The notes under the pieces are model-generated. The model ran no database searches, was not told the origin of the DNA, and was given only the letters and a program-made list of their open reading frames with translations. Shown piece after piece: positions 2,834-61,459 of a stretch of 64,000 bases of DNA. The position numbers and the translations under genes were made by a program. The DNA is from a virus (lineage: Duplodnaviria > Caudoviricetes): positions 1 to 64,000 of the IMG/VR virus record IMGVR_UViG_3300011008_000026; one strand, written 5' to 3'. Position 1 is the first letter of the stretch; each line of letters begins with the position of its first letter.

Positions 2834-2834
2834 T

Positions 2835-3762: not shown

Positions 3763-4440
3763 TTAGTCAACCAGCACATTCTCAAAACGTATGCTTCCAT
3801 AATTTGTCGTAGATGCAAGACGAGAAAAAGAATGTGTATAGCCGTTTCTGATTGTCATAACAGCCCTGTCAACAAGAAATATGGTATTGTCGTCTGTGCT
3901 TGAGAGCCTGCATTTATTCATATTCAGGATCACATCATCCGTAACGATTATTGTTTCAGTTACATTTAAATCGCAGCCGAGGTCCACTTCACCGCCTTGA
4001 GAAATAAGAATTCTCAAAGATTCAACAGTTGTTGCAGATCTCGTGATCATGTCAATATCCATTTGCGACAGGCTGTCGAATTGAATGTTTTCCAGTTCTT
4101 CTTTTGTTGCTCCGTCTGTAATTCCATAACCTTCAAGAGTTGTGGGCTTATTCAGAACGTTTTCGAATGTTACGGCGCCGGCTGGAGTCCCAAAAGTACT
4201 TACAACTCCATCTTCGTTGATGAGCAGTCCGGATCCAATTTTTATACCGCCAAGCGTTTCAGAAGAAGCATTTGGAAGAGAATAGTTTTCTAAAGATTGT
4301 AGCTTTTCTTTTTCTTCTGCTGTAAAATTACTCTCAGACAGACCTTTGTTTCCATCCTTTTTAATATATATTTCTTCAGCCTTTTTCCAAAGATGTTTTA
4401 CGCCTTCGGCATCTATGTATTTGTTTTCGTAATCAGCCAT
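3763..4440 (-). CDS. Tail fibre/structural protein
   Basis: KYIDAEGVKHLW, GNKGLSESNFT.EEKEKL, LGGIKIG and NKPTTLEGYGITD fibre motifs. Confidence 0.6.
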   Translation of the reverse strand: MADYENKYIDAEGVKHLWKKAEEIYIKKDGNKGLSESNFTAEEKEKLQSLENYSLPNASSETLGGIKIGSGLLINEDGVVSTFGTPAGAVTFENVLNKPTTLEGYGITDGATKEELENIQFDSLSQMDIDMITRSATTVESLRILISQGGEVDLGCDLNVTETIIVTDDVILNMNKCRLSSTDDNTIFLVDRAVMTIRNGYTHSFSRLASTTNYGSIRFENVLVD

Positions 4441-4469
4441 TTTGTCAACCCCTTTCTTTAAACACGCCA

Positions 4470-5180
4470 TCAGCCATCATTATTGTTTGAATCATTGTCG
4501 GATGACGCATTTGAATTCTGGGGAGTGTTTTGGTCATCGTTCGAAACAGATGATTCCGACTCAAGCTCTTCAAGGATTGTATCAAGTTCTTCCGGAGTTA
4601 ACGCACTGGAGGCATAACTCCCGGCTGGCGAGATACCAAGATCTTCAAGTGAAACATTTCCTTTTATTGGAACGTTGTTAATCGTCGGAATATTTGACAA
4701 ATGATTATAATCACCATCAGAACCACTAATTGTCGCAGGTGTTTCGAGTTCGAGAATATGATAATCAGGAATAGAAACAATCAAGGTCGGCTGAGCAGAC
4801 TCCTGTGGGAGAGTAAAGTCTGTCTCTTCTTCTTCATCATCTTCGTTTTCATAATAGGTGATTTCTTTCTTTAGAACAAAATCTCCAACAAATGATTCTT
4901 TAATTAGATTTTTATAGGAAATCTGAATGTCAAATTCATAATCTCCTACAGAAAGTTTATTTGTATCATCCGGGTCTATCTTTAATTGATAGTCTCCTGC
5001 ATTGAGTTTATAGATCTCTCCACGTTTTAATGATTTCTGAAAAAGATACATTTTATCACTGGATTTTCTTTTAACTGTAAAATATATATTCGTAAAATCA
5101 ATGTCTGTAGTGGTGCCACTTGATGTAATAATCACAAAGCGTATCCACTTAATGTCGCCTCTTGGCATCGAGATTCGCAT
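4470..5180 (-). CDS. BppU-like baseplate/adaptor protein
   Basis: RGD start, YFTVK, IDPDDT..L..GDY.FDIQ; DY..L.N.PTIN motif; acidic tail. Confidence 0.6.
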   Translation of the reverse strand: MRISMPRGDIKWIRFVIITSSGTTTDIDFTNIYFTVKRKSSDKMYLFQKSLKRGEIYKLNAGDYQLKIDPDDTNKLSVGDYEFDIQISYKNLIKESFVGDFVLKKEITYYENEDDEEEETDFTLPQESAQPTLIVSIPDYHILELETPATISGSDGDYNHLSNIPTINNVPIKGNVSLEDLGISPAGSYASSALTPEELDTILEELESESSVSNDDQNTPQNSNASSDNDSNNNDG

Positions 5181-35929: not shown

Positions 35930-35951
35930 CCATTATGGTGTTTTTCGAATG
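35930..35951 (-). promoter_or_regulatory. Candidate phage late promoter motif CATTCG-N9-ATAATGG upstream of Dit
   Basis: One of four copies (others at about 38653, 59331 and 61266). Confidence 0.5.
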
Positions 35952-37722: not shown

Positions 37723-38821
37723 CAATTTACGTTAGCACTATTAGGTTGTCATCCTCCGTGCTGTTACACAACAAATTTCCAATGATATCCTCCTGCCGAT
37801 TTTCTTCTTCCTTCGGCGACGGCTTGAATATTTAAGTTTCCCGGCATTGCTTTATTGGCTTCCGTACAACTCGAATAAATTACACCTGTTTCAACGCACA
37901 TAACTGGTCTTGAAACTGCTTTCTTTATCTTTTCTATATGTTCTTCAGATATTGTATGGCCCATATGTGATTTGCTGATTTTTTTTCTCTATACTCTTTA
38001 CTGGATCGTAATCTTCGATATTCGGCGTAAAAGACTGGGTCTTGGAACTGCTTTAATGTTTGCTCTCTTCTTGCTTTTCTGGACTCTTCTTTTTGCAATG
38101 CTTCTTTTACATGCTCAAAGCGGATTTTTGCCTTCTCTGGATTTTCACGATAATGTTTCTTTAGAGACTCGCTTTTCATTTTTGAGTACTCTTCATTGCA
38201 AACCAGCGCCCCATCTCCACCGCAAGTCCAATTATACCCTTTGGCTGAATCCGTAGTATTATAAAGCGCAATATAATATATTTCACGATCATTTATAACA
38301 TCCGGAGTACAAAGCTCTACGATCTCAAATCTAAAGCTATCAGGGCCATATTTATCCCATGCGTTTTGTAAATGCATATTATTATGAATACCTTTTTTTA
38401 ATTTCCAAATATGTAATGCCCATCTTGCTTGAATATCAATTGATCTTCCAATATATCGTTTCCCGTTTACCAAGTTTGTAATAGAATAGACACCGCATTG
38501 CTTCATTGCAATTACTCCTTTTCGTTGTGTAACTCTCATACTTTCGCATGAGTTCAGACTATATCTTACGCACATAAAGTGCGCACCAACCGCTTCGGCA
38601 GAGTGACGAGTTCTGCCTACTCCCAAAGGGGATAGTCGTTGAACCTTACTCTCCATTATGCGTATTTTCGAATGCGCGAATAATGAGGGAGTCTTGGCTG
38701 CTGATTGCCCATTCTAATGCTTGTTATTTTTAAGCGTTCACGTTTGCCTTTTCAGACTGCGTTGTAGCTAGCAAGCCTTTAGGGTGTTCCAGCAATTCGA
38801 TTGGTAGGGCCCTACTGTTTG
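37723..38821 (-). ncRNA. Group I intron in the TMP gene (1,099 nt)
   Basis: 5' exon ends in U with P1 GGGCU/GGCCC; P10 CAGUAG/CUACUG; P AAUUGCUGGAA, Q AAUCAGCAG, R CAACGACUA, S AAGAUAUAGUC; terminal G. Confidence 0.9.
37764..38506 (-). CDS. Intron-encoded GIY-YIG homing endonuclease with NUMOD3/NUMOD1, split by a frameshift at an A8 run
   Basis: GVYSITN..NGKRYIGRS, R...H, E..YI, GYN; C-terminal V.C.ETG..Y.S..EA lies in another frame (37764..37964). Confidence 0.8.
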
Positions 38822-41800
38822 AGCCCACTCATTCTTATATCTGGTTCGAATAACATCAAGCATTGAATCCTGAGCCGAGACCGTCGCTGACAGCATTTCT
38901 TTCTCCAGCTTAATCCGGTTCTTAATTTCTTTATCGATTGCGTTTTCAACCGAAGTCCTGGCTTTGATAATATTATCCGCGTTTGTTTTGATCGCCTGAT
39001 TGTTCTTCTCAATCGCATTGTTAACAGAAGAATATTCTTCTTCCATACTCATGATCTTTTGATTGATCTCATCGTATATGGCAGAACCCGGCTCGACTGT
39101 TTTAAGCTGTTCTTGCAGCCGTTCGATTGTCTCTTCGATAGCCTTGGCTCTTTTCTCCTGAAGCTCTGTTTCGATGTTCAGCATCGTCCCGTAGTTTGTA
39201 AGTTCTCCGGAATTCTGATACTTTGTCTCTTCATACTGAACAAGTTTGATCTGATGCTTTGTAAGATCATCCTGATCTGTAAAATCATCCAGAATGCTCT
39301 GGAATTCAGCTTCCTGAATTTCCTGAACAAGATCATCGTAGGAATTCTGTGTCTGCAACAGGGTTTCCCGAAGACTCATAATCTCAGACTTCAAGGTCTT
39401 CCATTGCGTACTGCCTTCCGTGACACTGCCATCAGTCAGCTTCTCTTCCATTTCAGCGAGACTATCACTTGTTACACCAATGCTTCTGGCCGTAATATCC
39501 AGCTCTTCGTTAAGCATGTTGATGTAATTCGTGTTGTCATTCTGGTTTTTATATCCGGTCGCAGTCAGTTGCGCCATCTTAAGCTCGTGCTCAACATCAG
39601 CAGACTTCTCGTTGTATTTCGTGGTTAACTCCGAAACGATAGACTCTTCAATGGCTTGATCGTTTTCCTGTATTGCCAGAGTTGCAGAAGCAATTGCTTC
39701 TTCGTATTCATAGATTGCGTCACGAGCAGAATACCACGCAGAAGTACCTTCTTCCAGCGAACTCATCTCTTTTTTCATCTCATTCATAGCGTCGCTATAA
39801 AGAGATATCTGAGCGCTGTAATAATCGTTTTGATCGCTTAGCGTGTCACGGTATAAGCCCCACTGTTCTCCGTTTTGATATATGTTCCCCCATGTAGAGA
39901 GCATATTTTGTTCGTGAGTAAGCGGGTCCATCTGGTTTGTCAGATCTGTAGCAATTTGCGAAACGATCGCAGAATTTAACGCTTCCGTATCTTCCAGAGC
40001 CTGATTTTCAAGCTGAGCGTTTTCTTCTTTCAGAGCCCAGATCTTATCCCGGACATCCATCCAGTTCTTGGTACCTTCTTCGTACGTACCGATCAGGTCT
40101 TCCCATTCTTCGAGCTGAGCATTGTTGGTCGCAATATCATTTTGATAGTTTGAAATCTGAAAGCGTGTTGCGACAACATAGCTTTCAAAGTCATTTTGAT
40201 CAAGATAGTTCTGTGCCTTCAGCTGCAACATGGTAGAAGCATGCTGGATAGGGGCATCTTCGTTTGCCTGTTTTGCGGCTACAACAGAGATTTTCTTTCC
40301 GTTGACTTCATCAATGGTATTGGCAACGTCTGCCATAGACTCGTTTGCGGAGTCAATAGCTTCCTGAAGCTTGTACCATTCTGTGGAACCTTCTTCTGTT
40401 GCGTTTCTTTGTGCTACAAGAGCTTCGATATTTGCGTTATATTGATTCCAGAGATTCTGTTGAGCGTCTATTTCCTTATCAATAGCATTAATGTATCCCT
40501 GATAATCATTGGCGCGCTCGTAGTAAGTCTCTTCAGACTGGGCCATGTTTACAAAATGCTGATAGCGTTTAATGTAATGGCTTTGTCCTTCAATCAAAGA
40601 ATCTGCCGCAGAAGTATTGTTCGAGTTTTTATTAGCTTTGGAAGAATCTCGACGAGGCGTATAATTGCTATTTGTTCCAACAACTCTTGGCTTAACAGAA
40701 GTAATTGTGCCGTCTCCGTTTGAGTAAATGTCCCAAAGAATGTCCAATCCCATCTCTTCGGCCATTTCAATCATCTTCTGTTTGTCTTCAGTCAATCGCT
40801 CCCAGAACAGATCTTTAATCTGCTGAGTATCCATCGTAAAAGTGCCGGACGTTACCGAAACATCAACGCCATCTATAATGAGGGGATTTTCACGAACGTA
40901 ATTGGTTAGTATGTCGTTGATGTTTCCGAATGCGCTCTGGAAATCTTCGGTAAGAGCCTCAAGCTGGGCATCTCTATCCTTCTTTGCGGCGTCAAGCATT
41001 TCATCTTGTTTTGTTTTAACGTCATTCTTATAATCATATCCAAGAGAGTTGAAGTAATTCTTGGTTTCTTCATCTACTCTCTTTCCGCTCTCGAACTGTT
41101 TTCGGGAATATTCATCATTGGAGAAATTCTTCATCGAAGTTCTGAGCTTTTTAATTGCTTCGTTTTGATCTGAAACAGTACGATTTGCATTCTTTGTTCG
41201 ATTGATGATAGCTTCAGTTTGTTCTCCCCATGGTTTATAAATTTCTATAAGACCGTCCCGAATATTCTCGTTTAAGTTTTTGATCGTTTCTCCGGTTCCA
41301 TTTAATGTGCCGTTAAGGTCTTTTGAAAGTTCATCGACTTCTTCAAATTGGCCTATCCAATCTTTAAAAGCAGGATCGTCGCCCATCAGGCTTTGCAGTT
41401 CATCGACATTAAGCCCGCCATTGCTGTTTAAAAGATTATTGTATTTTTGATATTGTAATTCATAATTTTGATCTTGCGTAAGTGCGGCTGCGGACGACAG
41501 TTGTTTGAGCGAATTAACCTGCTCTTTTCCAAACTTGTCGTTGTTTGCTTCGGCTTGCTGGAATATATTGGCAACATCAGTATTGCGGTTCAAGAACTTA
41601 GCCCATTCTTCTTCGGTGAAAATAGCTCCTTTATGAGTTCCAACGTACTGTCTGAGCCAAGCTTCTCGTGACATGTCTTCGGTTACGGTGTTGGCAATTT
41701 GATCTATTGACGCAGCGTCCTTAACTGTTTTTGTCCATGTTCCATATTTGTCAATCGCATCTTCCGGAGTTAAGGTTTCTGACCCGCTCTCTAAGGCGTC

Positions 41801-44800
41801 AATTATTCCTTGAATCTTTTCTTTTGCGGCGTCATCAAGACCTTCTGACGCTGTTTTGAGTTCTTCAATGAAAGAAGGCCAGTTTTCTTCTTTTAATTCG
41901 ATTCCAAACGCACTTGACATTTCCGTTCGAACTGTTTCAAGAAGATCGCTAGACTTTTCACGAATCATATCGGCTAGTTTGTCTTTTCCGTCTTCTGTTT
42001 TCAGAACACTTTTTATGTAATCAGAATTTAAACCAAGCGAGGTAGCAAGAAGTTCAATGTTATCATCATCTGTCAGATCTCCTGACCAGGCATTGTTTGC
42101 CATAGCAAGTTTGGAACGCTCACTGTAAAAGCCAGCTGCAACAGATGCTGCCTCAGCCTTTCCGCCTTCTCTTAGGTCGGTGATGTTCTTAGCAATCTCA
42201 GAAGCATTTTGTGCAATATTTCTATCTTCGCTTAATTGGAGCGACTTCTCTAAATCCGATTGCGCTCCTTCGATAACAGCTTTATCAATTTCCGCCTGCG
42301 CCTTTGCCAGTTGCGCATCCAACTCATCCTGAGAATAGCTTCCGGCTTCCTTCATTCGGATATATTCCGTCGCCTGTTCTCCCATTTTGCCGGCAGCCTG
42401 AGTATATAAAGCGTTTTCTTCTGTGTTTTTACTTGTCAGATCTCCTGTTAAAATGCGCCCCTGTGCTTCGGCAAGTTCAGTGGACGTAAAGAGTTCTGTG
42501 GCATTATAGAAAGGATTGCTACGGTCAACTTCAGTTGAAGATCCCATATAATACGCTTTGCCTTTATATATACGATATCCATTTTCACGAGCTTCAGCCT
42601 TTATACGGCGCCGCTCTTCATCGTTTTCTGCTGCCGCATAACGATCGGCATAAGTTCCGGCTTGCTGATCTGTAAGAATCTTAAACTGCTGATTGGCTTC
42701 TGCCCGTGCTGCTTCGTAGTCATTCTGAATACGGGCATCATCCCAGCCAGTCAGTTCCTTGATCATTTCATACTGCTCGCTCTTGGTCCCGTTGTTTAAC
42801 TTCGCTCCGATCTGAGCATTTGAATGCGCTTTATTGGCAAGCTCAAGCTCGGCTTTAATCTTAAGATTGCCGCCCTTCTTGATATTTTCAATTGCAGAGG
42901 CAGTTCCTTCCAGAACTTCGCCAAGTTCTTCAGCCTGTTTAATTCCATCAATCGTTAATTTAATATCCGCATTTCTCTCGAATATCTCAAGTTGAGCGTT
43001 ATACTGTTCAAGAAGTTCAAGATCTCTCTCGGATAACTTTTCGCCATTTTGCTGTTTTTGCACAAGCGCTGAATACTCGTTCCATCCGGAAAAGTCTGAC
43101 ATGTACTGGGCCGCAACTGTCGAGTCGTAAGAAGAAAGGCCACCGTTGCGAATTTTATCAATAACTTCTTTCTGTCCGTTATATTTGTCTGTAGAAGTTA
43201 AACCTTTAACGCCATATCTGCTGCTGTCGATTAAACGCCTTGCATACTTAACCTGTTCATCAGTCGCGTTCTGAGAAAGGAGAGACGTTAAAAGGTCTTC
43301 GTCTCCGACAATTTCTTTCAGATAGGCACGTTCATTATCATCCAGCACGGTGCTTCCTGCCGCCCATTGCTTAAATGTCTGTGGGCTGTAATACTTCTTA
43401 ACGGCATCTATTGCCTGCTGTGGCGCTCCCTGCTTTGTCAGGAAGTCTATCTGAGTCTGTTTCTCATCAGCGATATACTGATCATATTCCTGCATTCTTG
43501 CAGTTTCAGAGTAGAAAACCCGATTGTCCTTATTAAGTAAACTGTCGAGCGCAGACGTCGCAATGTCTGCTTTTTGACCTTTTGTCAGCGTGCTCTTTCC
43601 GATAGACGATTTGCCTGCAATCCAGTTGAGAAGAGCAAGATAGGTGCCTTCATCTTCAAATTTTACTTCTCCGTTTTCTACAACTGCTCCGCTTAGAATG
43701 TTAGCGAGTTCGCCGTTCTTCTCGTCAGTCCTGAGAAGATTTACAAGAAGCTGCTGACCTTCAGTTCCCGTTTGAGCCAGGAAGTCTTTATATGAAGAAA
43801 TCTCTTTCCCCTGAATAAGATCGTTGAACTGATCGGCATATGTCTTCTGCTGATTGGCAGTAGCATATGTCTGAGATCCAGTAGTGACAAGAGGGGAAAC
43901 AATATCTTGATAGGCGGTAAAAATGATTTTGTTAATCTTATTTTGAATTTCTTCCTGGATTGTCTTTATGTCTTCGACAATGTCATACGAATCGGCAAAC
44001 ACTTCTGGCGAATCAGGAACATTATCTTCTATCTCAGAAATCAAATCGTCTGCGAGCGCAATTGTATAATCATTGACCGCACGAACTGTTCCTTCAGAAA
44101 TCTCTCCATATACAGTTAAAACCGCAGCTTGCCATGTTTCATCGATACCGTTTTCGTTAATTACAGGCTTTCCGTCAGGCTCCATGCTCGAAAGAGTTTG
44201 ATAGACTTCAACGATTTCTTGCATTTTCTCATCGGAAATATTATCGGACTTATACGGAGATATTTCACTAATTTTTGGAGCTTCTACTGGTAAAACCTCT
44301 GCAGAAACGTTGTTGAACGCGCCTTCGTATTCTTTAACAGCTTCTTGCCATGCCAAGTCATTTTCACTTTTATCTACAGCGATTTGTCCGTGTCCTTTGC
44401 TATGTTCTGCGACAAGACTCCAATAAAATCCTTCGCGAGCATCTTCCAGCATTTCCCATTCGTCTTCCAAGGATTCCACAAGAATTTCGTAATCGTCACT
44501 TTCCTGCTTTTCTCCGTTGTGATCGATGTAATAATACATGCCTTTAACAGCATCAATCTCCGCTTGAGCAGCTTTTTTGCCTTCTTCGTTAACACCAAGA
44601 AGGGTTTCGCCCATCCAATACTGAACTTCATTCAGTTTGTCTCGCCATGCCTGAAGTCCTTCTTCGCCAATACCATAACTCATGCCGGTATTGGCATCCC
44701 GATAATCTGTTAAACTGCTGACGTAACTCTCGGCCTGTTCCCGTCCTTCTTCTTCGGAAAAGGTTTTAACGATTTGGCCTTCGCTGTCTAACACAACATA

Positions 44801-47800
44801 TTTGTTTTCTGAAATCTCTCTATTTCGTTTTGCGTCCAATAGAGTTTTTGCATACATTGGATCGGTCGGACTGATTTGCCGAAGTTCTTTGCTGGCTTCT
44901 TTTATCGCTTCATTTTCTTTATTGTGCGCATGCAGTATTCCATCTGAATCTTCATAAAATAAGAAATCAGAAAAACCTAGCACATCTCTTGCAAATCTTG
45001 CTGCTTCGTTCTTGTCTCTGCCAGCCGCATATGTAAATGACCCAGGATGAATATCTTCAGCTCTTTGTGTTTCGTCTCCGAATAATCCATGATAAGTATA
45101 CGAATATTTGTCACGATTCTCATCTTTAAAATCGCTTATCGTCTGATCTCTTAAATGAATGCTTTCAGAATGTAATGCTTCAGCTTCGGCGTTAGCAGCT
45201 TCCCATGTTTCAAATTCATCTTCCAGAACTTCACCTGTTCGTTTATTCTTTAACGTATAAGTCGCCTTAGTAGTTTCGATAATTGTCGGCTTCTCGGCTT
45301 CATTCTGTTTGTCAGCAATGGCCTTTGCTTCTTCGTAGGAATATCTCTTTCCGTCTGACCCGATATAATACGTTCCAGCTCCAAGATATTCTAGGCCAGC
45401 GTCAGCAGCCTGTTGCTCAACGGTTTCCTGCTTTTTTTGTTGACGATAATCTACCAATGTATTGTCAATGTTTTGTTGATAATTACCGTCTGTTCCAAAT
45501 ATGCTATTGTAAGCATCGGTTTTCCCGTTTGTAACATATACTCCAGCGTATTTGCCTGCCAGATAATCTATTTCATCTGAAGTATATCTTCCACCGAGAA
45601 TAGAACTATCACTGGCCCACTCTATAAAAGACGCTTTCGCGCTATCGTAAACCGCCGTAGGAGCAGAATCATATCCCGAACTGTTTAAATAATTAAAAGC
45701 TGCTTCAAGTTCTTGCTGTGTTACAACTCCATCGGATAGCCGCTTCGCCCATGCGTCTTTGGTGATACCGGTTGGATCGCTTTCAAAATCGTCCATTTTG
45801 CCAGCCAAGGCTGCGCTATACAACAAACTACTTAACGGGTCTTTTAAATCATTTGAAAAGCTTATTGTGCTTCCCCCGAGCGCTCCTGAAATAGCTCCGC
45901 CTAAGCCCCAGAATCTGTCGTTAACTTTTCCTGCTTCAATCTGGGAATTCATGGCACGCAAAGCGTTAGAATACATTTTGTATTCTTTAGCATCTTCATC
46001 AAAATACCATAAAATATTATTAAACAGAGGATTGGAAATATCTACTTCTTTACTTGCGGTTTCAACTTTTGAGGAAATACCTTTATCAATTGCATCTATA
46101 GAATCACCTCTGGTACCCGTCATGTGGCTTTCCCATAGTTGATTCTTTTTCTCATCCGCTTCTTTGATGACATTATCAGCCGCTTCGTCTGCTGTTCCAG
46201 ATAGTTCTTTTAACGAATCCGTTAATGTATCAATGCTATAAATTGTATCTTTGGCAGAAGAATCAGTTAAACCAAGCGATACTGCAAATTTATTTATTAA
46301 ATTTGCGTATTCTTTATTTTCTTCCGATGTTCTGTTTTTTGTATTCCTTAATTCGGTCAAACGATCGATTCCGTTGAAGCGTGTTTCGTATGCTTCTTTA
46401 TACTGCGTATTGCTCGTGCTAACTCTTTGCTCGGCTGTAGTTGATTTTCCAACATTATCAAGAGCAAGAGCAGAAACGCCAGCTATTCCGAGTCCTATTA
46501 CAATGCCGGGAAGACTTCCGCTCTTCAAACCCGCCATTATAGCGGCTATGGGAATCAGCGCAGATAAAACTCCCGGTAAAGAACCGGCAGAGGTAACAAT
46601 ATTGTTAATACCTTGAACAATGCGGGTCAAACCATCTACAAAACTTGTCGCAAGTCCTGATTTAATAACATCCTGAACAAGCCCGTCAAATGTGTTTTTC
46701 AGATTGTCTAAGGAAGCCTGAACACTTTCAACATAGACGTCGTATTTCTTATCTGTAATTCCATCCGCCTGATCCAGAAGATCAAGATACTTGTCGATTT
46801 CTCCTTCCTTAATACCAGTCATAATGGCACTAAAGTTAGAGAATTGACGAGTGCCGGCAATAGCCGTTGCAAGCTGTCTCTGCTCGTCATCACTCATCGT
46901 ATCATACTTCTGAGCCAGATCATACAGTAAATCAAAAGAAGATCTTCTTGAACCGTCGGAATTATTTGTTTGTATTCCATGGGAACGGAGCAGTGTCGCT
47001 ACGGCAGAACCACTTATGGTGTTGCCATTCTCATCTGTGATGATCTCTTTGGTTCCGACCTTATTCATCCGGCCGAAAATAGAGTTCAAGGTTGTACCAG
47101 CAACATTACCTGTTACCTGTGTCGTTGCAGTTACAGCAGTAAGCAAGGCGACGAGCTGTCCATAGGTTGTTCCGTCTATTGCGGCGGCCGCACCGGACTT
47201 TTCAATTCCCTTTTCAATCTGGGCGGCATTGGTAGCGGCACTGTCACCTAACATGGTAACAACATCAGCTGCATACTGCGCATCGTCTACCAGTCCAGTA
47301 TTAAGGGCGGTTGTAATCAGCTTGGTTGCGTCAGTTGCTTTTGTACCAGAAACTTTGGAGAACTTGGCAATTGTATCAAGCCGTTCTTCCATCTCTTCGT
47401 CAGAAAGACCCTGACGATAGAGCTCCGTACTCATCTGAGCAATTTCAGAGAAAGAGATCTTGAGTTCCTTGGCCTTGTCAATCAGACCTTGTCCAAGCGT
47501 TTCCATTTCAGAGTTACTCTTCAGAGTAATCATCTGAATATTGGTAAGTGTCTTATCGTATTCCTTGACGAACCGCTTAACTTCTTGAAGTATCTTGTTG
47601 AAGATTTGTCTGCCAAATCTGGTGGCGAGCATACTGATCGTATTGCCAAACTGAACAGAAGCGGCGTTTGCAATGCCGAAAGGCCCTGACAGCTTAGCAA
47701 TCTGAGATCCGGCACGTTCTGATGCAGCTTCCAAATCTCTTAATTCGGCAGCAGTCTTATCGTAATCCTTATCGCCTTCTCCTTTTCCTTTTTCAACCAT

Positions 47801-50800
47801 TTCGTTAAGGCGATTCTGTACTGTATATTTTTGAGCATCTACTTTTACTTTATAATTCTGCCAGCCGCTAAGAGCGGAGTCTCTTGATTGTATAGCACGT
47901 CCAATAAATCCACGATTCATGCCGTAGGTTGACCTTGTCAGCTGGTCCCCCTGCCGCATAAGCTGGTCATGCTGAAAATCTCTGGACTGAGATCGAAGCG
48001 CTATGCTTTCATCTGTATGTGCTTTAAATTCCTTTTGTTCGGCTTTTAACCTTTCCAGGTCAGCACTAAGTCTTTTAGCTCCATCCGCATATTCTTGGCG
48101 GGTTTGTTTGCTATAAGATTGGTCTCTGGCCATATCATTAAGCTTTTGCAGTTCTTTTTCTACTTCAGCGATTTTTTCTCTCCACTTTTCAAGTGCTTCG
48201 ATTTGGGGATCATAGGTTCCTGCAATTTTGTCATTAGCCGTGGAGAGACTTTCAATCATACTCTTGGATCCAGCCAAAGAATAATTCATGAAATCCCGGC
48301 CGGCCATAGAGGAAAGAGTATTATCACCTTTAACGAATCTGAGTAGTTCGGATTGTTGCTCGTCGCTTAATGTATCAAATTGACTTGATTTAACAAATTC
48401 GTTAATTCGTTTTTCGTAACCACGTGCAATACCTGTATTTACTTCCAAACGCCTGATTGCGGCAGGTGTTTCTTTAACCTTTGCAATGGAAGATAAATTA
48501 CCGGAATACAGTTGTTTAGAAAATTCGGTACTTCCTTGAATCAGCTGCGCAAAACGATCTTGGGCTAGTTGCCTGAACTCCGGATCCGCCATCATCCCGC
48601 CAGGTCCGGAAGGTCCACTGGGCGGATTGTTTGGCGGAGAAGGAGAAGAAGGAGGATTGTTACCCGTGTTATTTTGGCCTGTCTGATTACCGAGTACAAC
48701 AGGAACATTGTTTGTTGTTGTGTTGTGATTGGCTGCATTCGGGCATTGAGATAAAGATGCATCATATTCAATGCCACAAATCGGACACTTCTTTTTCGGT
48801 GTTTTACCTGAAGAAGTTCCCCCGCCTTGTCCGGTTTGTCCATTTGTGGTGGTTTGACTTCCGGATGCGGCAGGCGTTGCAGAAGCATTATTCGTTTGTG
48901 TTTTATGATTAGCCGCATTGGGGCATTCTGGAAGATTATGATCATACCAAGTGCCACAAATAGGGCATTTTGTTCTCGGGGGAATAGTCCAAGGTTCACG
49001 AGAGTCATAGAATGGAATATCTTCCATGCCCGGTTCTTCTTCAAATCTGCCTCTAATTCTCAGTATCTGACTTGCCGATTTAACTTGCGATCCTCTTCCC
49101 CTTGCTAACGTATAATGCTTTTTGATTGAGCTATCACTTTCCGTTGTAATATTTGGGATGGCTTCAGTTGCAACCAAAGCTTCTTTCTCTTTTTCTTCCT
49201 GCGTTTTCTGTGCAACTTTCCACCCCAACTCTGGCTTGGATGAAGGTTGATAATTTACATATTGACTGCCTTGTAATAATGCGATTGCCTTTTCTGCGGA
49301 AACTTGTCCAACTCCATTAGTTACTAATTGCTGCCAATTTCCAGAAGAGACAGCTGCGGCGACAGTCTCTCTTGGTAAATTCAGAATTGCATCAATTTGA
49401 GAATCATTTAATTTTCTGCCGGACGCAGGCTTTTGCGACAATAAATCACGAGCTTCATCTTTTGCCGTCTTCTGAACTTGATTTGCTACTTCAGCTTTTG
49501 CTTCAGCCGCCTTCTGTTCTTCTTTCGCCTGTTCCTGTTTTGCATCAGTTGCTTTTTGAGCAGCTTCTTCAGCCTTTGTTTCAAGAGCCGTATCAGGAAC
49601 TTTGTCTGTTGTTGTAACCTGTACGCTTTTTTCGCGTACATCCTTTAATACTTCATCGGCCTTTAACTTTTGCGCTTCAATTTCTGCTTGCGCAGCAGCT
49701 TCTTCTGCTTTGACCTGCTCTTGAGTCTGAACAATCTTTTTTCTTTTCGGTTTCGTTTCCTTTGGTTTTGGCTGTTCTACAATCTGTTCTGCCGCTGGCT
49801 CTTCGACTTGTGGCGCTTTAGATGCTGTAATTCTGGAATACAGCATAGAAGGATCAACGCCTAAAGAAGCGGCAAGCTTTTCAGCGGATGCTTTTCTCTC
49901 CGAATCACTTTCTATTGCACGCTGAGTATATGAATAGTTACTAATTTGCTCAGCTACCATCAGACCGGCAGCTTTACGTCTCTTTGCATATTCATCGTCG
50001 AGATTAAAATATTCACCATTCTTTTGCTTTTGCTTTTGTTCTTTTTTCAAATCAGCCCAGATTTCTTCGTCTGCAAGCCTTTTTTGCGCGAGTATAGCAT
50101 CTTCATCTTCCTGAGAAAGAGCAATAAAATCTCCATTTAATAAGCCTGCTTTCGCCTGACGAAGCATCATAGTAAGTTTGTAGGCTTCAGTTCCTTCTCG
50201 TTCCGATGTTGGCATGTTCTTTGAATCGAGAATTGTATTCCAGTCATAGAGAGAATTGCCGTGTATATCGTGACCATTGATTTCAAGACCCTGCTGTTTA
50301 AGCTTACTTCTTTGACGAAGTGTTCCAAGAACCGCACCGTTGGTTAATGTCGGAAGATTAACTTCGTCGAGTCTTCTTTTGTTAAATTTTTCTTGTGCTG
50401 CCTGATCCCATACATATCCGGATTCGTCATTAGCGCCTTTTGTAGTAACATCTTTAGCGGCCCATTCGAAAATTCTTGCAAAAGAACGACCAAAAGAAGA
50501 TGCACTTGTTTGTTCTTCTGTCTGCGCCCATTTTTCTGCTGTTTTTAAGTGAGTAGAAACAACATCATATTGATCTTCGTGGTCCAACAGAGCCTGAGCA
50601 AATTCAGGATTAATCTCGCCATTTCTATTATAAAGAGCCGCAATAATATCTGTAGCTCTATCTGCTTGACCCATCATGGGACTGGTTACGCCGACACCAA
50701 ACATATAATCAATGAGGTCATCCATGCTGTCCAGTTTCCATGTTTTATCAGGGTTGTCCGGTAGACTTAGTGTGCGATTCTCTTTTCGCGCTTTTTGATT

Positions 50801-53800
50801 TTTCCGAACGTATGCTATTTTTTGTTCATCGGTCCATTTTGACGCATCAGGGAATTGTTCTTCAGGGTGTTTCTTTGCCTTTTCCTGCATATTGTCAAAG
50901 GCTGCCAGAAGAATGCCGTTAACTTGCTTGGTCGCTTCCTCGTTCAACAATCCCATTACCTGTGCGAAATCTTTTTTGTCCGTGCTGGATAAATTATCAA
51001 TGTTGAACATTGTGGACAGATCAAACTGACCTGTTTTATCACCATCGAAATCCATTCCCTGTAGGAATCCAAGAATTGGAGATACGGGATTAAAATAAAT
51101 GCCTTTCTCATCCAGCCCGCGATTTGACATAGATTTACGGATGGCAGCACCAACAGTAGACCGCCCGCCGCCTACCACATCATTGCTGTTCCAAAGGTTT
51201 TTTGCCTTTATGTTACCGCTTAAGGTTGCGGGAAATCGAACAAGGGAAAGAAATTTTGAATTGGATTTAGCAGAGACAACGTCGTTTTCTCCAAGATGCA
51301 GCTTTCTCTGCAAAGGTGTTAACTGTTGTCCGTTACGAACAAACATTTCATTAAGTACATTCTGCGCCCATGGGGCCGCCATGCCATAAGACATGACGCC
51401 TGTTGGCATCAATCTGTCACCTTCAGTATATCGCTGAAGCATATTGTCGATATGATCCTGCTTTTTCTTTCTGGCTTCTTCAGAATTTAAATCAATTGTT
51501 TGATCTCCGCCAAAGATAACATCGCGGGCATATTGTTCGTCGTCAAGATGCGCTATTTCTTTTTGCAGAATATTTGCAAAATAGGCTTCAATATCTTCTC
51601 TTTGAAACGCTCCTGCAAGCTGTCCGTTCACAATTTGTTTGGACAGCCACCGAGAAGAAGTACCAGCACCATCGTATGTTGTTTTAGCATATATATGGTG
51701 TCTGGAATAATCTCTGGAACGCCGATCATTTAACTGTGCCTGAGTCAGATCATTTCCTTGGTCGTCTTTAAATATAGCCTTATTTTTAATATTGTCATCA
51801 ACTTCAAGAAAATCAGTGTCCCAAGGTACAATAAGATCACTGCGCCAAACGACATTGCCCTTTTCGTCTTTTCTGACGTCCATTCCGGCTCCGGGAATAA
51901 CAAAATCGCCATATTGCATCATAATGCTCTGAACCATCTTGTTGCGCTTACGTCCGCGAATAGATGGATCGATTGCGGCAATTTTAGCTCTTGTGATATC
52001 ATTGTCTATGATCTGGTCAGGATTATCGCGTTTCATCCCAATCAAATCTTGCTTAACAAACGTGGCTTTTCCGCCGTAAACACGTCCCTGGAAGCTCTCC
52101 TGAACACCCTTGTTAAATGCCCAGTTTGCGCCGTCCATCAACTTGATTGCATCTTTCCCTTCGCCTGTAGCAAAGTGCCCGACAACAACCTTCATATTAG
52201 GTTTGCCGAGCTGTTCCATGATACGCTTCTCTTGCTGAGGATGAGTGAGTTCACCGCTTGCCTTTTTTTCCGCAATTTTCTTTTCCGCTTCCGGAGTGCT
52301 TTCAAAACCAAAGTTCATTCCCCAATAGGAACTTAGGTCTTCGCCATCTGTAGCTAACAGATTCATATTGTAAGCGGCTTTTGCAAAATCTTTACGGCTG
52401 GAAAATTCATTTCCGGCCCCATTCCGAAGTAATTTTAAACCAGCAGCCCGAATTTCATCAGAATATGGAGCGTCAGGCGCCAAACCAAGCTCATAGCGGC
52501 CTAGATCGTCTACGATTGAAGCCTTCATAAATTCTGTATGAGTTTTGCTTACACGAGTTGCGATATAAGGTGTATTATTAACTTCATAGCCGTTAGTTAG
52601 ACGTTCCTTTAATTCCGCCTTCAGCTTTGCTTTTTCTTTCTCGGGCAAATATTGATTCGCAAGACGCTCGTCGTGTTTTAGATAGATCATGTTGTCGTCA
52701 AAGTCATTATGCCCGGCTTTAGAAGCAGAAGGCATAGAATGAACAAGATCCATCAGCATGCTGCCGTTCATTCCGATAGTATGAAAATCATCGGGTGAAA
52801 TGGAAAGCTGTCCATTTTTTGCAGATGCTCTTTGCGGTCCGTGAATATGTGGAAATGCTGTCCATGTGCCATTAATGTTTTTAACGGGACTTATTCCGGT
52901 TATTTGGACATTTTGCGCCATCATATCCAGCGCATATTCAGCAAAGCCACGGTTTACTTCATGGGGCAAGTGATTTATTTGCCCGACATATCGTTTTTTC
53001 GGAGAAGTATTAGGATCAAACTGGGGAGCCTGATCCATCCTATAGTATCCCGGATTGTACCAGCTAAAACTTTCATCCATAGAACGTGCTGTTCTAAGTT
53101 CGCTATCTAAAGTTTTATTATGTCCAATCTTTCGGGAAATATTCGGCCGGTTGTCCGGATCTTCGACATCATGCGTTCCGTATCTGTAGTGGCCACGTGC
53201 ACCGGTGACAATGCCGCTAAAATTAATACCACCCATGGCATTAACCATATCGCGTGTGGCTTCGTTGTTGTAATACAGTTTGCCCTGACTTCTTCCATAT
53301 ACACCGGCAGCAACAGCAGCATCTGCGGCAAGATGATCTTTTTGAACAATTTTATCCAGCTTGGCCTGTTCTTCTCTTGTCAGTTTCGTGTTTCCGTCTG
53401 GCGTGCTTCCAAATGTACGAAGTTCTTCCTTTTTTGTTGGACGTCGAACGGGGATGGTCCGATAAGACGCGGGTACCATTTCACGGAAGGATTCAGGAGC
53501 CGCCCTAAAAACGACGTTTGAATTGCCTGCTACGTCACTCCGCATGGATTGCGGAAGTAAAATTGGCATCTGGCTTTTAATATAAGCAGACATAACGCTG
53601 GTTTTAGCGGCTTGAGGGTTTACAGATTTAATCTGCGCCTGTAAAGATTTCCCTTCTGAACTGGATATGAAAGCTTTTAGCAGCTCATCGTCAGAAAGCA
53701 TACTGCTTTTTTTGATTCCCTTCGAAGCCTGAGCCGAAGCTTGTGCAGTGGCCCTTGTCGCAACGGTAAGAAGGGATTTTTTTATTTTATCAGCAAAGCT

Positions 53801-54187
53801 AACGAGAGTATTTGTAATTGCAGGAGTAATATCTTTGGCAAAGTCCTGTGTATTGGAAACTGATTTTTGAATATCCTGAATTGTCTTGTCTGCCATTTCG
53901 ACTTTGCGTCTGTAGACTGCTGTCAAATCTGCCCGTTCAATTGAATTTGAGGCATTGTCGATTGCGTTTCTGGCTCGAACAATATCGGTCAGACTTGAAA
54001 TCCAGTGATCATATTTTGTTTTGATTGCTTCACCGTATCCGGAAAGACCCGTTCCCTGAGCCATGGGGACAAGAGAAGAAGCCTTCTCCTGCAGGCTGGT
54101 GATCTTACTTTCGATCTCTTCTGCTTTCTGGTTAAAGGGATCATCGTTAATATCGACACCTAAACTTAAAATTTCATTTTCATCCAT
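38822..54187 (-). CDS. Giant tape measure protein, exon 1 (5,122 codons), with N-terminal two-barrel RNA-polymerase-like domain
   Basis: TMP core (EYDKTLTNIQMIT..AKELK....EI......YRQG; GTTLNSIFGR; AGTRQ) at about 47570-46700; long coiled coils; DFDGD at 51052-51038; position between chaperones and Dit. Confidence 0.85.
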
Positions 54188-54247: not shown

Positions 54248-54287
54248 ATGATGGTTGAATTTTCAGATAGGGGAGGGGATTAAAGAG

Positions 54288-55829
54288 TTGTTTAAAAAGA
54301 ATAAAGATATAGGGGATGAATTGTTTTTACTTAAAAGCGAATACGAAAAAATAAAAATACAGCAAAAGAAATCTATGGATAAGATTTCTTCTTTAGAAAG
54401 CGTCGTTTCTGATCTCACAGGAAAAATCAAAGTCCTTGAAAAGAAGCTCGAAGATACAGAGAAGTCCAAACCGGTTGCTGCCTCAAACTCAGATATTAAA
54501 CTAACGCCCGAACAACAACAGGCGCTTACAAAACTCACAACAACAGACGATAATTATTTCGTCACGGGAAAGGCGGGGACAGGGAAGTCCACGCTGTTAA
54601 GAAAACTGGTGGAAATATCCGACCCGAAATCCACAGCAGTTGTTGCGTTTACAGGGGCGGCCGCGTTAAATGTCGGAGGTCAGACAATTCATACTTTCTT
54701 CAGATTGAGCCTTGGCCCTCAGGATGTTTTGAACTCAGACAATATTCAGTCGCCCCCGTATATCGAAGATGTTCTTGCCGTATTGAAAATCCTGATCATT
54801 GACGAAATATCCATGGTCAGATCAGACATTCTGGACATGATGGATCATAAGCTCCGGAAAGTAAAAGACGGCAATCTGCCGTTTGGCGGCTGTCGAATAA
54901 TTGCGTTTGGAGACCCGTATCAGCTTCCTCCGATTGCCAGTTCCCGTGAAGAAGAAAAATTCATCCGGCTCAGATACAATACGCTTCACTTCTTTGGCGC
55001 TCCCGGCTCGAAGACATTCAAAAGGATTGAGCTGCAGAATATTATGCGTCAGACTGATCAGCGGTTTATTGCCGCCCTGAATGAGATTCGCCTTGGGAAC
55101 CCTTCTGCAGAAACCCTTCGATACATTAATGCAAGCGGAAGAAAAGATTTCCCGGACAACTGGACACGTCTGACACTGAAGAAAAGTGTAGCCGCCGAGA
55201 TCAACCGTAAAATGCTTGAGAAAATTCCCGGCGAGGAGTTTATATTTAAAGCACAGTTTGGAGGAGACGATCCCCCTACAAGGAGCGATCTGACCTTCGA
55301 GCCTGTTTTGAACGTGAAGATCGGCGCTCGTGTAATTGCCGTTAAAAACGATCTGCAAAAACGTTATGTAAATGGATCGATTGGAATTGTAGTAGCCGTC
55401 AAAGACGATGAAATAATTGTCAACTTCAACGGAGTGGATATTCCTGTCTCGACAATGCTGGATGAAAAAGCGCAGTATTACTATGACAGAAAGAAAAGAG
55501 AGCTGTCCAAGCAAATCGTTGGGTGGTGCAATCAATACCCTCTGAAGCTGGCCTACGCAATTACCGTACACAAATCACAGGGCCAGACATTTGACAATAT
55601 CATTCTCGATTTCTCAGGATGCACAGCGTTTGCTCCGGGGCAGACCTATGTAGCCTTATCCAGATGCAAATCTCTGCTTGGCTTAAGACTGACAAGACCA
55701 ATTGACAGGCGGGATGTTTATGTTGATCCGGATATTACCGCGTACATGAACAATCAGTTTCAGCCGCGAAACGAAGAAGACATACTTGTCAGCAAATGGA
55801 TGGAAGAAATAGAACTGCCGTTTGAATGA
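54288..55829 (+). CDS. PIF1/RecD-like SF1B DNA helicase with N-terminal coiled coil
   Basis: GKAGTGKS, IIDEISM, GDPYQLPP, MRQ, AYAITVHKSQGQT, YVALSR; likely TTG start after GGGAGG (ORF track starts at 54255). Confidence 0.9.
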   Translation: MFKKNKDIGDELFLLKSEYEKIKIQQKKSMDKISSLESVVSDLTGKIKVLEKKLEDTEKSKPVAASNSDIKLTPEQQQALTKLTTTDDNYFVTGKAGTGKSTLLRKLVEISDPKSTAVVAFTGAAALNVGGQTIHTFFRLSLGPQDVLNSDNIQSPPYIEDVLAVLKILIIDEISMVRSDILDMMDHKLRKVKDGNLPFGGCRIIAFGDPYQLPPIASSREEEKFIRLRYNTLHFFGAPGSKTFKRIELQNIMRQTDQRFIAALNEIRLGNPSAETLRYINASGRKDFPDNWTRLTLKKSVAAEINRKMLEKIPGEEFIFKAQFGGDDPPTRSDLTFEPVLNVKIGARVIAVKNDLQKRYVNGSIGIVVAVKDDEIIVNFNGVDIPVSTMLDEKAQYYYDRKKRELSKQIVGWCNQYPLKLAYAITVHKSQGQTFDNIILDFSGCTAFAPGQTYVALSRCKSLLGLRLTRPIDRRDVYVDPDITAYMNNQFQPRNEEDILVSKWMEEIELPFE

Positions 55830-58376: not shown

Positions 58377-61300
58377 TCATCCATTCTGCTTTGCTTTTTC
58401 AATGTAAGCAGTGCTGTAGCAGCCGCCGTCGTTCCGCTTCGCATCCCAAAATATGTTCAGCATGAGTCGTTAATTCATGCCCGCTCTGTTTTGAGCAGCT
58501 CTATGTCACCATAGAAGTTCAGACTATATCACGAACTCTCTTAAAGAGTCCCTCTTCATTTCGGGCCACTTGGCCCTACTCTACTCACTCGATTTTAATC
58601 GGCTTTCGATAGTCGTTAGGCTTTTATTCACACACACGTTCAAATTTAAAACCTTTGCAAAGTCTGTTTTCCTTAATTGATGCAAAAATAGCTTCTGAAG
58701 AACATCCCACAGATCGTCCTGCAGCCGCACCACTACGAAACACTTCCCCAGTGTCGATATTACGAACAGCAACATGCATGGAGTTTAGATTACCTTTACG
58801 TGCCTCTGAAAATTTAGCTTTTTGCAATTCTGTTAAAGGCCCCGTTTTTAATCCTTTATTCCACGCTCTCTGTCCCATGTGCCCTTCAGATAGATGTTTT
58901 CGATATTCTTCAGATCTATGTTGTGCATTATATTTCATTTTCTGTTTTGTTTCTTCAGCCATTATTGAGCCGTAATGAGCTGGTTCTGAATCATACAAAT
59001 TATATCCGTATTCTTGTTTATTTGAATGAAATGATTGAATGTAACATTTTTCAAGCTCGATACTTTCCTCGTAAGTCAAGTTATCTGCAAGAATTTCTAA
59101 TGTGAAATTATTCCATCCGTATTTGCAAATAGCATGCCAAAACTTTGTACATTCTTTATAGTTGTTTCCATTTTTACCAGCTCTGTTTTTAATCGTTTGC
59201 ATAGTTCTTCCTATATACACCTTATTGTTTATTACATTGGTGTATTTATAAACCACATTCTTTTTCATCGAATCTCCTTTGTGTAATTTTATGTGTGTGA
59301 AATTTAGCACGGGATTGTCTCTTCTCCTCCCCATTATGGTATTTTTCGAATGCGGAGAATTATATTTTATCAAATACAAATACAGAGAGTTTCCCCGTTT
59401 AGAAGAGTTTTTCAATGCCTCTCGCAAGGCAAAGCCTCAGATAAATATTTAAGGCAGTAAGTGTCAGCTGGAAGCTGGCAGCGCTCTTATCTTAAATGAT
59501 AAAAGTCATTTTGTTTATTCACTATTGTTCGCTACGCAATAGCCGCTTTCGCAGCTGCATGTCACCATGCAGAATAGACTATATCTTCACCCTGTAAAAC
59601 AGGGGCTCTTCTTTTCGGATCGCTTGATCCTACTCTACTCGCTTCTTCAGGCTTTCGCCCTATGCTTTCGATAGTCGTTAGGCATTTACAAGCATTCGCT
59701 TGATTTAGCACGGGATTGTCTGCTTGAGAGTTTCCCCGTTTAGAAGAGTTTGTTCATGCTTATTACTAAGCAGCCTCCCTAAGAGTCGCTAAGGAGGTAT
59801 CGAAGCCGGGAGCGGTTGTAATCCGAGCCCGGAAGACCTTAACCACATAGTAGCCGATAATATCGGACTCTGTGCAGTCATCGCCGTTGCCATACACCGG
59901 CCAAATGCAAGCAGCCTGTCCAATAGCAGAGCTCTTGTTGTCGATGATGGCTTCCATGGCTTCCTGCTCATAATCGTACACGACCTCGATGATCTTCAGA
60001 TTATCCGCAGCGGCAAAGGTGATCACGGTCTTCTGCTCATCACCCGTGCCAGAGGTTGCAACCTTATACTCACCTGCGCTGGGAGTAGTCTCGGTTGTCT
60101 CTTCCATGCCGGAAATGTAGATGGTTCCATCCACGGCCACATGGTCCAGTGTGACGGTGTGGTCATTCTTCACTTCATAGCGCTCGGAAGTCGCCAGTGT
60201 GTACGTCTCTTCTCCGTCGCCACCGCGATGAACATAGTCAACACGGTTCGCCATGGAGAACAGTTCGGCATCAAATTGACCACTCGTAATTGTCATCTCG
60301 AAAGAAGACTGTCCGGGCAGCACAGCCACAGGATACATGCTCCAACCCGCGTTAATAGGGGTTGTTTCAATGTTGGGGGTAACAGTCGCGGCAGTCAGCT
60401 CATCGAACGCGAAACGCTTACCGTCGCAGCGATCGAAGATGACCTTCGGCACGTCGGCGATATCATTATATGTTCAATGCAATTCGCTAGATTGCATCCG
60501 TCTTTCGACAGCTATATGTCTCCATATAGATCAGATCATATCTTCACCCTAAATAATAGGGGCACACCGTTTCAGCCCGCTTGGGCTTACGTCTTTCGAC
60601 TGATCGTTAGGCTTTTAAACATATTTCCAATGAGGGCCACGGTTTCTTGAAGGAGCATTCAAATGATTTCTGCGAGCTGAATTACCAATCTGCCCAACAG
60701 TCCAACCTGTCTTTTCAGAAGCTTCAGCAACAGATGCATAGATAAAGCCTGTTTCAATACACATTACTTTTCTTCCTCTGGCAAGTCTGTTGCCTCTGCT
60801 AATCGCGGCCTTTGTTTCATCGCTTTGTCGTGTTCCTCTGTGAGCAGCAGCAGTCTTTTCTATTGCTTCTCGTGTAATAACCTGCCTTGCTCTTGCTTCT
60901 TTGATTTTTCTTCTTGCTTCATCAGATCTTGGCCCTTGATTTACACCGCCAGGTTCTTGGTTATAACCGTTATCAATTGTGTCGAACAATTTAATAAGCA
61001 AAGATTCTGTATGGCTTGCTTCTTGTTGTGTAAGATTTTTTGCAAAAATAAAATGTTCAAATGAATTCCATCCGTATTTCTGAATAGCGTGATAGAACTT
61101 TACACAACCACGATAATTTATTCCTTTTGAACCCCAGCGATGTTTTGGATACTGTTCAGATGTAACACCAACATACATTTTGCCATTTGCTTTATTAATG
61201 TGCACATAAACAGTCCATTTTCCATTTTCAATTACCATAATATATCTCCTTGTCTTTTTGTTTCTCCATTATGGTATTTTCGAATGCGAAGAAATAGATT

Positions 61301-61459
61301 TTATAATATATGGAAATATGTTATTTAGCACGGTAGGTTGTCGATAAAAGAGTGCCGTTCTTTTACAGACTTTCCCCGTTTAAGTGTGATTTTGACATGC
61401 ATTGCTGCATGAAAGAGCTATTTTGCTAACCCTCTGAATTTTGCAACATACGTAGCCAT
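58377..61459 (-). CDS. Major tail (tube) protein, 4 exons: 61459-61429, 60463-59792, 59490-59451, 58446-58377; 270 aa spliced
   Basis: Exons sum to 813 nt in frame: MATYVAKFRG|YIADVPK...PGFDTS|YKSAASFQLTLTA|LDAKRNDG...; RBS AAAAGGAGG; position between tail terminator and chaperone. Confidence 0.8.
58447..59450 (-). ncRNA. Group I intron 3 of the major tail protein gene (1,004 nt)
   Basis: P1 GCCUU/GAGGC with U.G; AAACGGGGAA..AAUCCCGUG; R AACGACUA; S GAUAUAGUC; terminal G. Confidence 0.85.
58624..59268 (-). CDS. Intron-encoded GIY-YIG homing endonuclease (NUMOD3/NUMOD1)
   Basis: VVYKYTN.INNKVYIGRT, AI.KYGW.NF, E..YI, GYN; AAAGGAG RBS. Confidence 0.85.
   Translation of the reverse strand: MKKNVVYKYTNVINNKVYIGRTMQTIKNRAGKNGNNYKECTKFWHAICKYGWNNFTLEILADNLTYEESIELEKCYIQSFHSNKQEYGYNLYDSEPAHYGSIMAEETKQKMKYNAQHRSEEYRKHLSEGHMGQRAWNKGLKTGPLTELQKAKFSEARKGNLNSMHVAVRNIDTGEVFRSGAAAGRSVGCSSEAIFASIKENRLCKGFKFERVCE
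59491..59791 (-). ncRNA. Group I intron 2 of the major tail protein gene (301 nt, no ORF)
   Basis: P1 CCUCCU/GGGAGG; P10 CUCUUA/UAAGAG; P3 CUCUUC/GAAGAG; R AACGACUA; S AAGAUAUAGUC; terminal G. Confidence 0.9.
60464..61428 (-). ncRNA. Group I intron 1 of the major tail protein gene (965 nt)
   Basis: P1 GAGGGU/GCUCUU; P3 CACAC/GUGUG; P7 GAUCA/UGAUC (covaries against GACUA/UAGUC in the other introns); terminal G. Confidence 0.85.
60615..61238 (-). CDS. Intron-encoded GIY-YIG homing endonuclease
   Basis: TVYVHINKANGKMYVGVT, RW, AIQKYGW..F, E..LI, GYN..PGG; C-terminal V.CIETG..Y.S..EA. Confidence 0.85.
   Translation of the reverse strand: MVIENGKWTVYVHINKANGKMYVGVTSEQYPKHRWGSKGINYRGCVKFYHAIQKYGWNSFEHFIFAKNLTQQEASHTESLLIKLFDTIDNGYNQEPGGVNQGPRSDEARRKIKEARARQVITREAIEKTAAAHRGTRQSDETKAAISRGNRLARGRKVMCIETGFIYASVAEASEKTGWTVGQIGNSARRNHLNAPSRNRGPHWKYV

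Follow-up and report, generated by a model that had tools for sequence, protein, structure and literature searches.

A predicted siphophage-type tail tube gene interrupted by three group I introns in a metagenome-derived virus

How could a complete tail tube protein be made from a locus in which the list of open reading frames (ORFs) shows only a 228-amino-acid (aa) fragment of its gene? The question is raised by positions 58377-61459 of a 64,000-nucleotide (nt) stretch of DNA, here called the window, which covers positions 1 to 64,000 of the IMG/VR record IMGVR_UViG_3300011008_000026, a virus of the Caudoviricetes (Duplodnaviria). The fragment (59766-60452) is flanked in the ORF list by ORFs of 207 aa (60615-61238) and 267 aa (58624-59427). 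An initial annotation of the locus had proposed that a major tail protein gene is split here by three group I introns, one of them followed by a micro-exon of 40 nt. From the analysis described below, we consider it very probable that related IA-type group I introns have entered a siphophage-type tail tube gene on three occasions, and that its transcript would be spliced to a 270-codon message.

Exon structure and colinearity with intron-less homologues

The tail tube gene lies on the minus strand. Exon 1 (61459-61429, 31 nt), which has an AGGAGG Shine-Dalgarno sequence 9 nt upstream, encodes Met1-Gly10 and the first base of Tyr11, and its N-terminus, MATYVAKFRG, matches in alignment the MATYxxxxxG start of nearly all homologues. 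Exon 2 (60463-59792, 672 nt) runs from the remainder of Tyr11 to the first base of Tyr235. Exon 3, the micro-exon (59490-59451, 40 nt), runs from the remainder of Tyr235 to the first two bases of Leu249 and codes for (Y)KSAASFQLTLTA(L), a segment aligned to YKSAATFQFTLSAL of intron-less homologues. Exon 4 (58446-58377, 70 nt) supplies the last base of Leu249 through Gly270 and the TGA stop; it codes for DAKRNDGGCYSTAYIEKAKQNG, aligned to the family's DAKRNDEGAYSTAY.... When the four exons were joined by script, an 813-nt frame of 270 codons plus stop was obtained, with no internal stop. The introns, of 965, 301 and 1004 nt, sum to 2270 of the 3083 nt, i.e., 73.6% of the locus. T is the last base of every 5' exon, and G is the last base of every intron.

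The exon-2 translation (P0001) was used in a protein database search that returned 200 homologues, mostly of 250-270 aa. The joined protein was colinear with 57 full-length homologues across all three junctions, each of which is uninterrupted in the homologues: MATYxxxxxG|YIADVP at junction 1, PGxDTS|YKSAATFQFTLSAL at junction 2, and AL|DAKRNDEGxYSxAY at junction 3. One intron-less homologue of 269 aa, P0004, is about 88% identical to the joined protein, and from DAKRND onward it has the same sequence as the exon 4 product. In intron-less relatives the coding DNA is continuous at each insertion site, with T at position -1. The joint between exons 3 and 4 is ambiguous in a trivial way, since it can be read as TT|G or TTA|, giving Leu in either case; the rule that a U.G pair marks the 5' splice site favours the joint of the initial annotation. 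In the 57-sequence alignment (A1), the insertion sites coincide with invariant blocks of the family, G10-P16, P228-K235 and D248-R251. Because homing sites are expected in invariant blocks, the insertion positions count in favour of intron invasion. The agreement of the predicted exon map with the intron-less homologues, together with the Rfam score of intron 2 given below, is far beyond chance.

If the frame is read on from exon 1, a TAG is met at the fourth codon of intron 1 (TTA GCA AAA TAG), so that exon 1 gives only 10 codons ahead of the intron stop. The conserved N-terminal block (MATY....GY) is in exon 1, and C-terminal strands of the protein come from exons 3 and 4. Given the early stop and the conserved parts in exons 1, 3 and 4, a full-length tube protein would need all three splices. 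The proposals of the initial annotation on these points were borne out: its exons of 31, 672, 40 and 70 nt joined into an 813-nt frame and matched the homologues at every junction, the ORF track did show only the 228-aa fragment, about 74% of the locus is intronic, and an in-frame stop follows three codons into intron 1. The dependence on triple splicing that it had claimed would follow from the exon map and the early intron stop.

Three related group I introns

The three introns, all on the minus strand, are intron 1 (61428-60464, 965 nt, final G60464), intron 2 (59791-59491, 301 nt, final G at 59491) and intron 3 (59450-58447, 1004 nt, final G58447). Intron 2 is ORF-less, and introns 1 and 3 each carry an ORF in the P6 loop. 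Intron 2 matched the Rfam group I model (RF00028) at 71.8 bits (E = 3e-16, model positions 1-253), above the gathering score of 50, and its minimum-free-energy fold gave P3, P4-P6, P7.2, P8, P9 and P9.1. The matches to introns 1 and 3 were partial and below the gathering score, at 30.2 bits for the 3' core of intron 1, and at 26.9 bits (3' core) and 22.2 bits (P4-P6) for intron 3. A check against the Rfam model thus upheld the initial reading for intron 2 and not for the other two, whose shortfall is accounted for by the insert of about 640 nt, the ORF, in the P6 loop. When the ORFs were removed, the cores of all three introns aligned over P1-P9.2 with 55-67% identity, the intron 1 and intron 3 cores being 61% and 67% identical, respectively, to that of intron 2.

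The 5' splice sites are defined by distinct P1 pairings. The exon sequence AGAGGGU pairs with the guide GCUCUUU (61418-61412) in intron 1, CCUCCU pairs with GGGAGG (59779-59774) in intron 2, and GCCUU pairs with GAGGC (59438-59434) in intron 3. In each case the U of the 5' exon faces a G of a guide helix of 5-7 bp, and the place of this pair is equivalent in all three introns. P10 is 6 base pairs (bp) in intron 2, formed by CUCUUA (59785-59780) and exon-3 UAAGAG; in intron 3 it is 5 bp, formed by UAUCU (59443-59439) and GGAUG; in intron 1 it is only about 3 bp. The U.G pair at each 5' splice site, the terminal G of each intron and the P10 pairings of introns 2 and 3 can therefore be read in the sequence as they were initially described.

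Covariation supports the core helices: P3, P7, P7.1, P7.2, P9, P9.1 and P9.2 covary in a set of about 25 related introns. P3, which is CACACU/GGUGUG in intron 1 and CUCUUC/GAAGAG in both introns 2 and 3, pairs across the ORF and covaries, with about eight further pair combinations in relatives and a pairing partner always at the same distance from P7'. The ORF loop is closed by P6a, a stem of 7 bp in intron 1 (AACAUAU, 61322-61316, with AUAUGUU, 60624-60618) and of 9 bp in intron 3 (UUCACACAC, 59301-59293, with GUGUGUGAA, 58635-58627). The P7 of intron 1 is doubly compensated, being GAUCA/UGAUC instead of GACUA/UAGUC. RNAalifold, applied to the 3' halves of 22 introns (the three described here and 19 from relatives), found compensatory changes in 24 of the 30 predicted pairs, with compensated helices P7, P7.1, P7.2, P9, P9.1 and P9.2. 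Two hairpins between P7 and P3', namely P7.1 and P7.2, are present in all three introns, and compensatory changes support both; their presence makes these introns IA-type, the usual phage kind. Given the 3'-half covariation, the compensated P7 of intron 1, the covariation of P3 and the P6a stems, introns 1 and 3 are, by sequence and covariation, intact group I ribozymes. With intron 2 above the Rfam threshold, and the cores of introns 1 and 3 alignable with it and covarying, the proposal of three group I introns stands.

Tail tube identity of the joined protein

The exon-2 product matched PHROG 2729, 'virion structural protein', with E = 3e-9. It had no match in Pfam, the Pfam set searched being apparently without PF27173, a family that the protein database lists for homologues. 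An AlphaFold2 model was built on the intron-less P0004 with alignment A1 and had a predicted local distance difference test (pLDDT) score of 85.9. In a Foldseek search of the PDB with this model, the best matches were the tail tube proteins 8xkn_B and 8ygm_A (E = 4e-12, template modelling scores 0.68-0.75), with the YSD1, Chi and JBD30 tubes next, and almost all matches at E <= 0.001 were tail tube or major tail proteins. The A1 profile likewise matched tail tube proteins in the PDB, 8k98_A and 9jgh_A, at E = 1e-6. The gene lies upstream of an ORF of 5139 aa (38768-54187). The PHROG match, the Foldseek matches, the PDB profile match and the gene position together support the identification of the predicted product as a siphophage-type tail tube (major tail) protein, with a modelled fold of the SPR/SPbeta, YSD1 and Chi type. 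The name of major tail protein, initially given from the sequence, is thus well founded.

In the P0004 model, exons 3 and 4 supply the C-terminal strands 239-246 and 257-263, so a product limited to the 228-aa fragment would be missing some of the fold. Automatic annotation at this locus displays only that fragment of an essential virion gene, and recognition of the introns restores the 270-aa tube protein.

Intron-encoded endonucleases and a recurrent motif

Both intron ORFs are predicted GIY-YIG homing endonucleases of the I-TevI-like kind. The ORF of intron 1 (60615-61238, minus strand) encodes 207 aa and has its own ribosome-binding site, AAGGAGA; its product matched the Pfam GIY-YIG domain (PF01541) at 26.7 bits, the cut-off being 22.6, and PHROG 314, 'homing endonuclease', at E = 4e-29. 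The ORF of intron 3 (58624-59268, minus strand) encodes 214 aa from the ATG at 59268, with AAAGGAGA as ribosome-binding site; it scored 20.4 bits for GIY-YIG, just under the cut-off, 20.3 bits for NUMOD3, and E = 2e-19 for PHROG 314. NUMOD3 is borderline in both ORFs. The ribosome-binding site is strong in both cases. The two endonucleases are only 30% identical, and the final codons of each ORF form the 3' strand of P6a.

Four copies of the sequence CATTCG-N8-9-ATAATGG are present in the window, where chance would give 0.02. All copies are on the minus strand. The N8 form is found at 61266-61286 in the P6 loop of intron 1, 28 nt upstream of the endonuclease start, and an N9 form is found at 59331-59352, where it lies within the P5 extension of intron 3 and 63 nt ahead of the start of that intron's endonuclease; the other copies are at 35930-35951 and 38653-38674. 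Three copies are intronic and upstream of endonuclease ORFs, at differing positions in the ribozyme (the P5 extension in intron 3, the P6 loop in intron 1 and in the fourth intron described below), and one is outside any intron. The copies are flanked by short inverted repeats (UUCUCC...GGAGAA-like), and the motif recurs within introns of the related contigs L033 and L046. Its role could be that of a promoter or of an RNA module.

Another group I intron, the fourth, was seen at 38535-38875 (minus strand, Rfam 67.4 bits), at the 3' end of the 5139-aa ORF. An ORF at 37934-38656 (minus strand) extends out of this fourth ribozyme, with a GIY-YIG domain that starts at about residue 54. Past the intron, the ORF at 35980-37725 is probably the continuation of the giant gene. 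The whole source record gave four group I matches in all.

These features suggest how the locus might work. In the late pre-mRNA, three independent guanosine-initiated self-splicing reactions would take place, each intron finding its own 5' splice site by its distinct P1 guide (GCUCUUU, GGGAGG or GAGGC). The three splices would join 31+672+40+70 nt, and only the triple-spliced message would give tube protein. The endonuclease genes, each with a phage-specific promoter-like motif and its own ribosome-binding site upstream, would be expressed from transcripts that start inside the introns. Their products would probably cut the intron-less alleles of relatives during co-infection and so spread the introns.

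The tube gene as a recurrent insertion site in relatives

The tube gene is interrupted in 19 of the 53 IMG/VR loci that code for the family. The interruptions cluster near residues 11, 19-21, 47, 49-50, 53-57, 64-66, 72, 197, 238-241 and 248-249, i.e., at about 10 sites, so that this one structural gene looks like a recurrent homing hot spot. Residue 234/235, the site of intron 2, is under-sampled among the 53 loci because one search pattern spanned it. Two of the relatives, L046 (3038-6630) and L049 (553-3979), have three introns each, in other combinations of sites. The intron-2 site does recur in the protein database, where about 12 of the 120 best homologues break off at DTS and finish with a tail read through from the intron, for example LATLRDVA. 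When 18 intron-bearing relatives were searched with Rfam at the gathering threshold, only ORF-less introns passed, with three matches (L026, L039 and L054); because the ORF-bearing introns of relatives fall under the threshold, the covariation analysis was used for them.

Other searches defined the reach of the family. Megablast of the locus against GenBank phages gave only 32-nt chance matches, and tblastn of P0004 against 50,697 GenBank phage records gave no match. A metagenome scan found one intron-less locus, L058, 62% identical, and a scan of IMG/VR with degenerate junction patterns added nothing new and no near-identical intron-less allele. Three family copies were found on 100-300-kb contigs binned to metagenome-assembled genomes (MAGs) of Clostridia: L059 and L060 (JAZQFG01) in Acutalibacteraceae and L061 in Eubacteriales. 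This placement is a weak hint of Clostridia hosts. Both Acutalibacteraceae copies align only from residue 50-59 onward, and they therefore probably have N-terminal introns too.

The distribution of the introns bears on a further reading, in which the tube gene of this uncultured phage clade is a battleground and not a passive target: the endonucleases would be weapons that cut the essential gene of co-infecting intron-less relatives, and the three splices would act as a timing or quality checkpoint. The roughly 10 insertion sites, the differing intron combinations and the endonuclease cassettes with their promoter-like motif would fit such a role, and the use of an intron endonuclease as a weapon against a co-infecting phage has been shown for phage PhiPA3 (PMC11620839). 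We nevertheless regard this reading as doubtful. Repeated invasion by homing introns remains the explanation that we prefer, and the family offers a natural system for asking whether intron endonucleases shape competition among related phages.

Comparison with known intron-bearing phage genes

The closest precedent is orf142 of Staphylococcus phage Twort, for which three group I introns, an internal exon of 23 nt and the skipping of an exon are described (PMC11878797, PMC10136302) and which has since been identified as a tail tube gene (PMC11878797). Its introns 2 and 3 are similar IA2 introns with the 23-nt exon between them (PMC10136302). The two genes are alike in being tail tube genes with three phage IA-type introns and a tiny exon between introns 2 and 3 (23 vs 40 nt), and introns 2 and 3 resemble each other in both. 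They differ in that Twort orf142 encodes a 142-aa myophage tube, whereas the present gene encodes a 270-aa siphophage-type tube, and in that splicing and skipping are experimental findings in Twort, whereas splicing is a prediction here. The Twort introns of Landthaler and Shub's 1999 work are said to be ORF-less, whereas two of the three introns here have GIY-YIG genes.

Each intron with an ORF is reminiscent of T4 td and its endonuclease I-TevI, in which an IA-type group I intron also has a GIY-YIG/NUMOD3 ORF looped out of the ribozyme core, with an endonuclease that probably has its own promoter inside the intron. In td, however, the ORF is in a peripheral region and the host gene is one of nucleotide metabolism, whereas here the P6 loop holds the ORF, whose last codons form P6a, and the interrupted gene encodes a virion protein. 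Self-splicing introns are also found in highly expressed virion genes of Cluster J mycobacteriophages, where those in capsid and minor tail genes are spliced efficiently in late infection (PMC3706429); those genes differ in having a single intron each, of another lineage, and an endonuclease that is LAGLIDADG-like and on the opposite strand, or none. Bastillevirinae have two or three group I introns in polymerase and terminase genes (PMC11878797), the mean for Jug phages is 18.5 group I introns in each genome, and introns are reported for crAss-like phages as well (PMC12880540). Like the tube gene, these Bastillevirinae and gut phages have 2-3 group I introns per essential gene and endonuclease ORFs that break up Rfam matches, and the fragmentation hides genes from annotation. 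The reports on them deal with DNA polymerase, terminase and ribonucleotide reductase genes, and with small ORF-less introns of about 206 nt, whereas the gene hit here belongs to a tail tube family without a match in GenBank phages.

Given Twort orf142 and the published intron-rich gut phages (PMC12880540), the initial annotation overstated the rarity of three introns in a tail-tube gene. The novelty is modest and lies in the different, siphophage-type tube family, in the GIY-YIG ORFs in the P6 loop of two of the introns, and in the hot-spot behaviour of the gene. A second tail-tube family, unrelated to the first, is thereby added to the Twort precedent.

Alternative explanations

Several points weigh against the proposed triple-intron gene. 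Splicing is a prediction from the DNA sequence; introns 1 and 3 miss the Rfam gathering score, as the ORF insert explains; intron 1 has three G.U pairs among the 7 bp of its P1, together with a weak P10; and the genome comes from a metagenome assembly that is 67% complete, rather than from a phage isolated with its host.

The skipping of a micro-exon in Twort raised the possibility that exon skipping around the 40-nt exon yields a second form of the tube with another C-terminus, which would be compatible with the triple-intron gene. The parallel with the 23-nt exon skipped between two similar IA2 introns (PMC10136302) is strengthened by the 67% identity of the intron 2 and intron 3 cores. Loss of the 40 nt would, however, shift the frame and replace the DAKRND...YS.AY end with an unrelated 24-residue tail. 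Moreover, the P1 and P10 guides of introns 2 and 3 differ and do not match each other's exons, and guide differences of this sort favour exon inclusion in a Tetrahymena model (PMC10136302). Skipping thus seems improbable, and the locus is a natural system for studying how three similar ribozymes in one highly expressed late message avoid mis-pairing or skipping around a 40-nt exon.

It could also be asked if the gene is decaying, with at least one intron that no longer splices, so that it would be a pseudogene or belong to a defective phage. The scores of introns 1 and 3 below the Rfam threshold, and the weak P1 and P10 of intron 1, are what such decay might leave. Yet the four exons are intact and in frame and retain the conserved residues, all core helices of introns 1 and 3 are intact, with changes that are compensatory and not disruptive, and the endonuclease ORFs are both open. 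In addition, a second tail tube gene was not seen in the record of 94.5 kb. We therefore consider decay very unlikely.

That a metagenome assembler mis-joined intron-like repeats into the gene can hardly be credited, even though the record is a metagenome-derived contig, since the introns, at only 55-67% identity, differ too much to be collapsed or mis-joined, a 48.5-kb contig also has the 228-aa fragment on record (possibly this genome's own record), and 19 independent IMG/VR contigs have the same kind of interruption in the gene. Three other kinds of element, a group II intron, an intein and a free-standing endonuclease, were ruled out by the group I core, the in-frame stops and the exact U...G boundaries.

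Neighbouring genes and tandem copies

PHROGs searches with eight neighbouring ORFs gave essentially no matches. A PIF1-like helicase ORF (54255-55829, plus strand, 524 aa, PF05970, E = 1.5e-29) lies between the giant gene and small genes downstream of the tail tube gene, on the opposite strand. In two related loci, L024 and L040 (about 2600-4760), two sets of the family motifs ADVP, YKxA and DAKR were seen about 1 kb apart, which suggests two tandem paralogous tail-tube genes.

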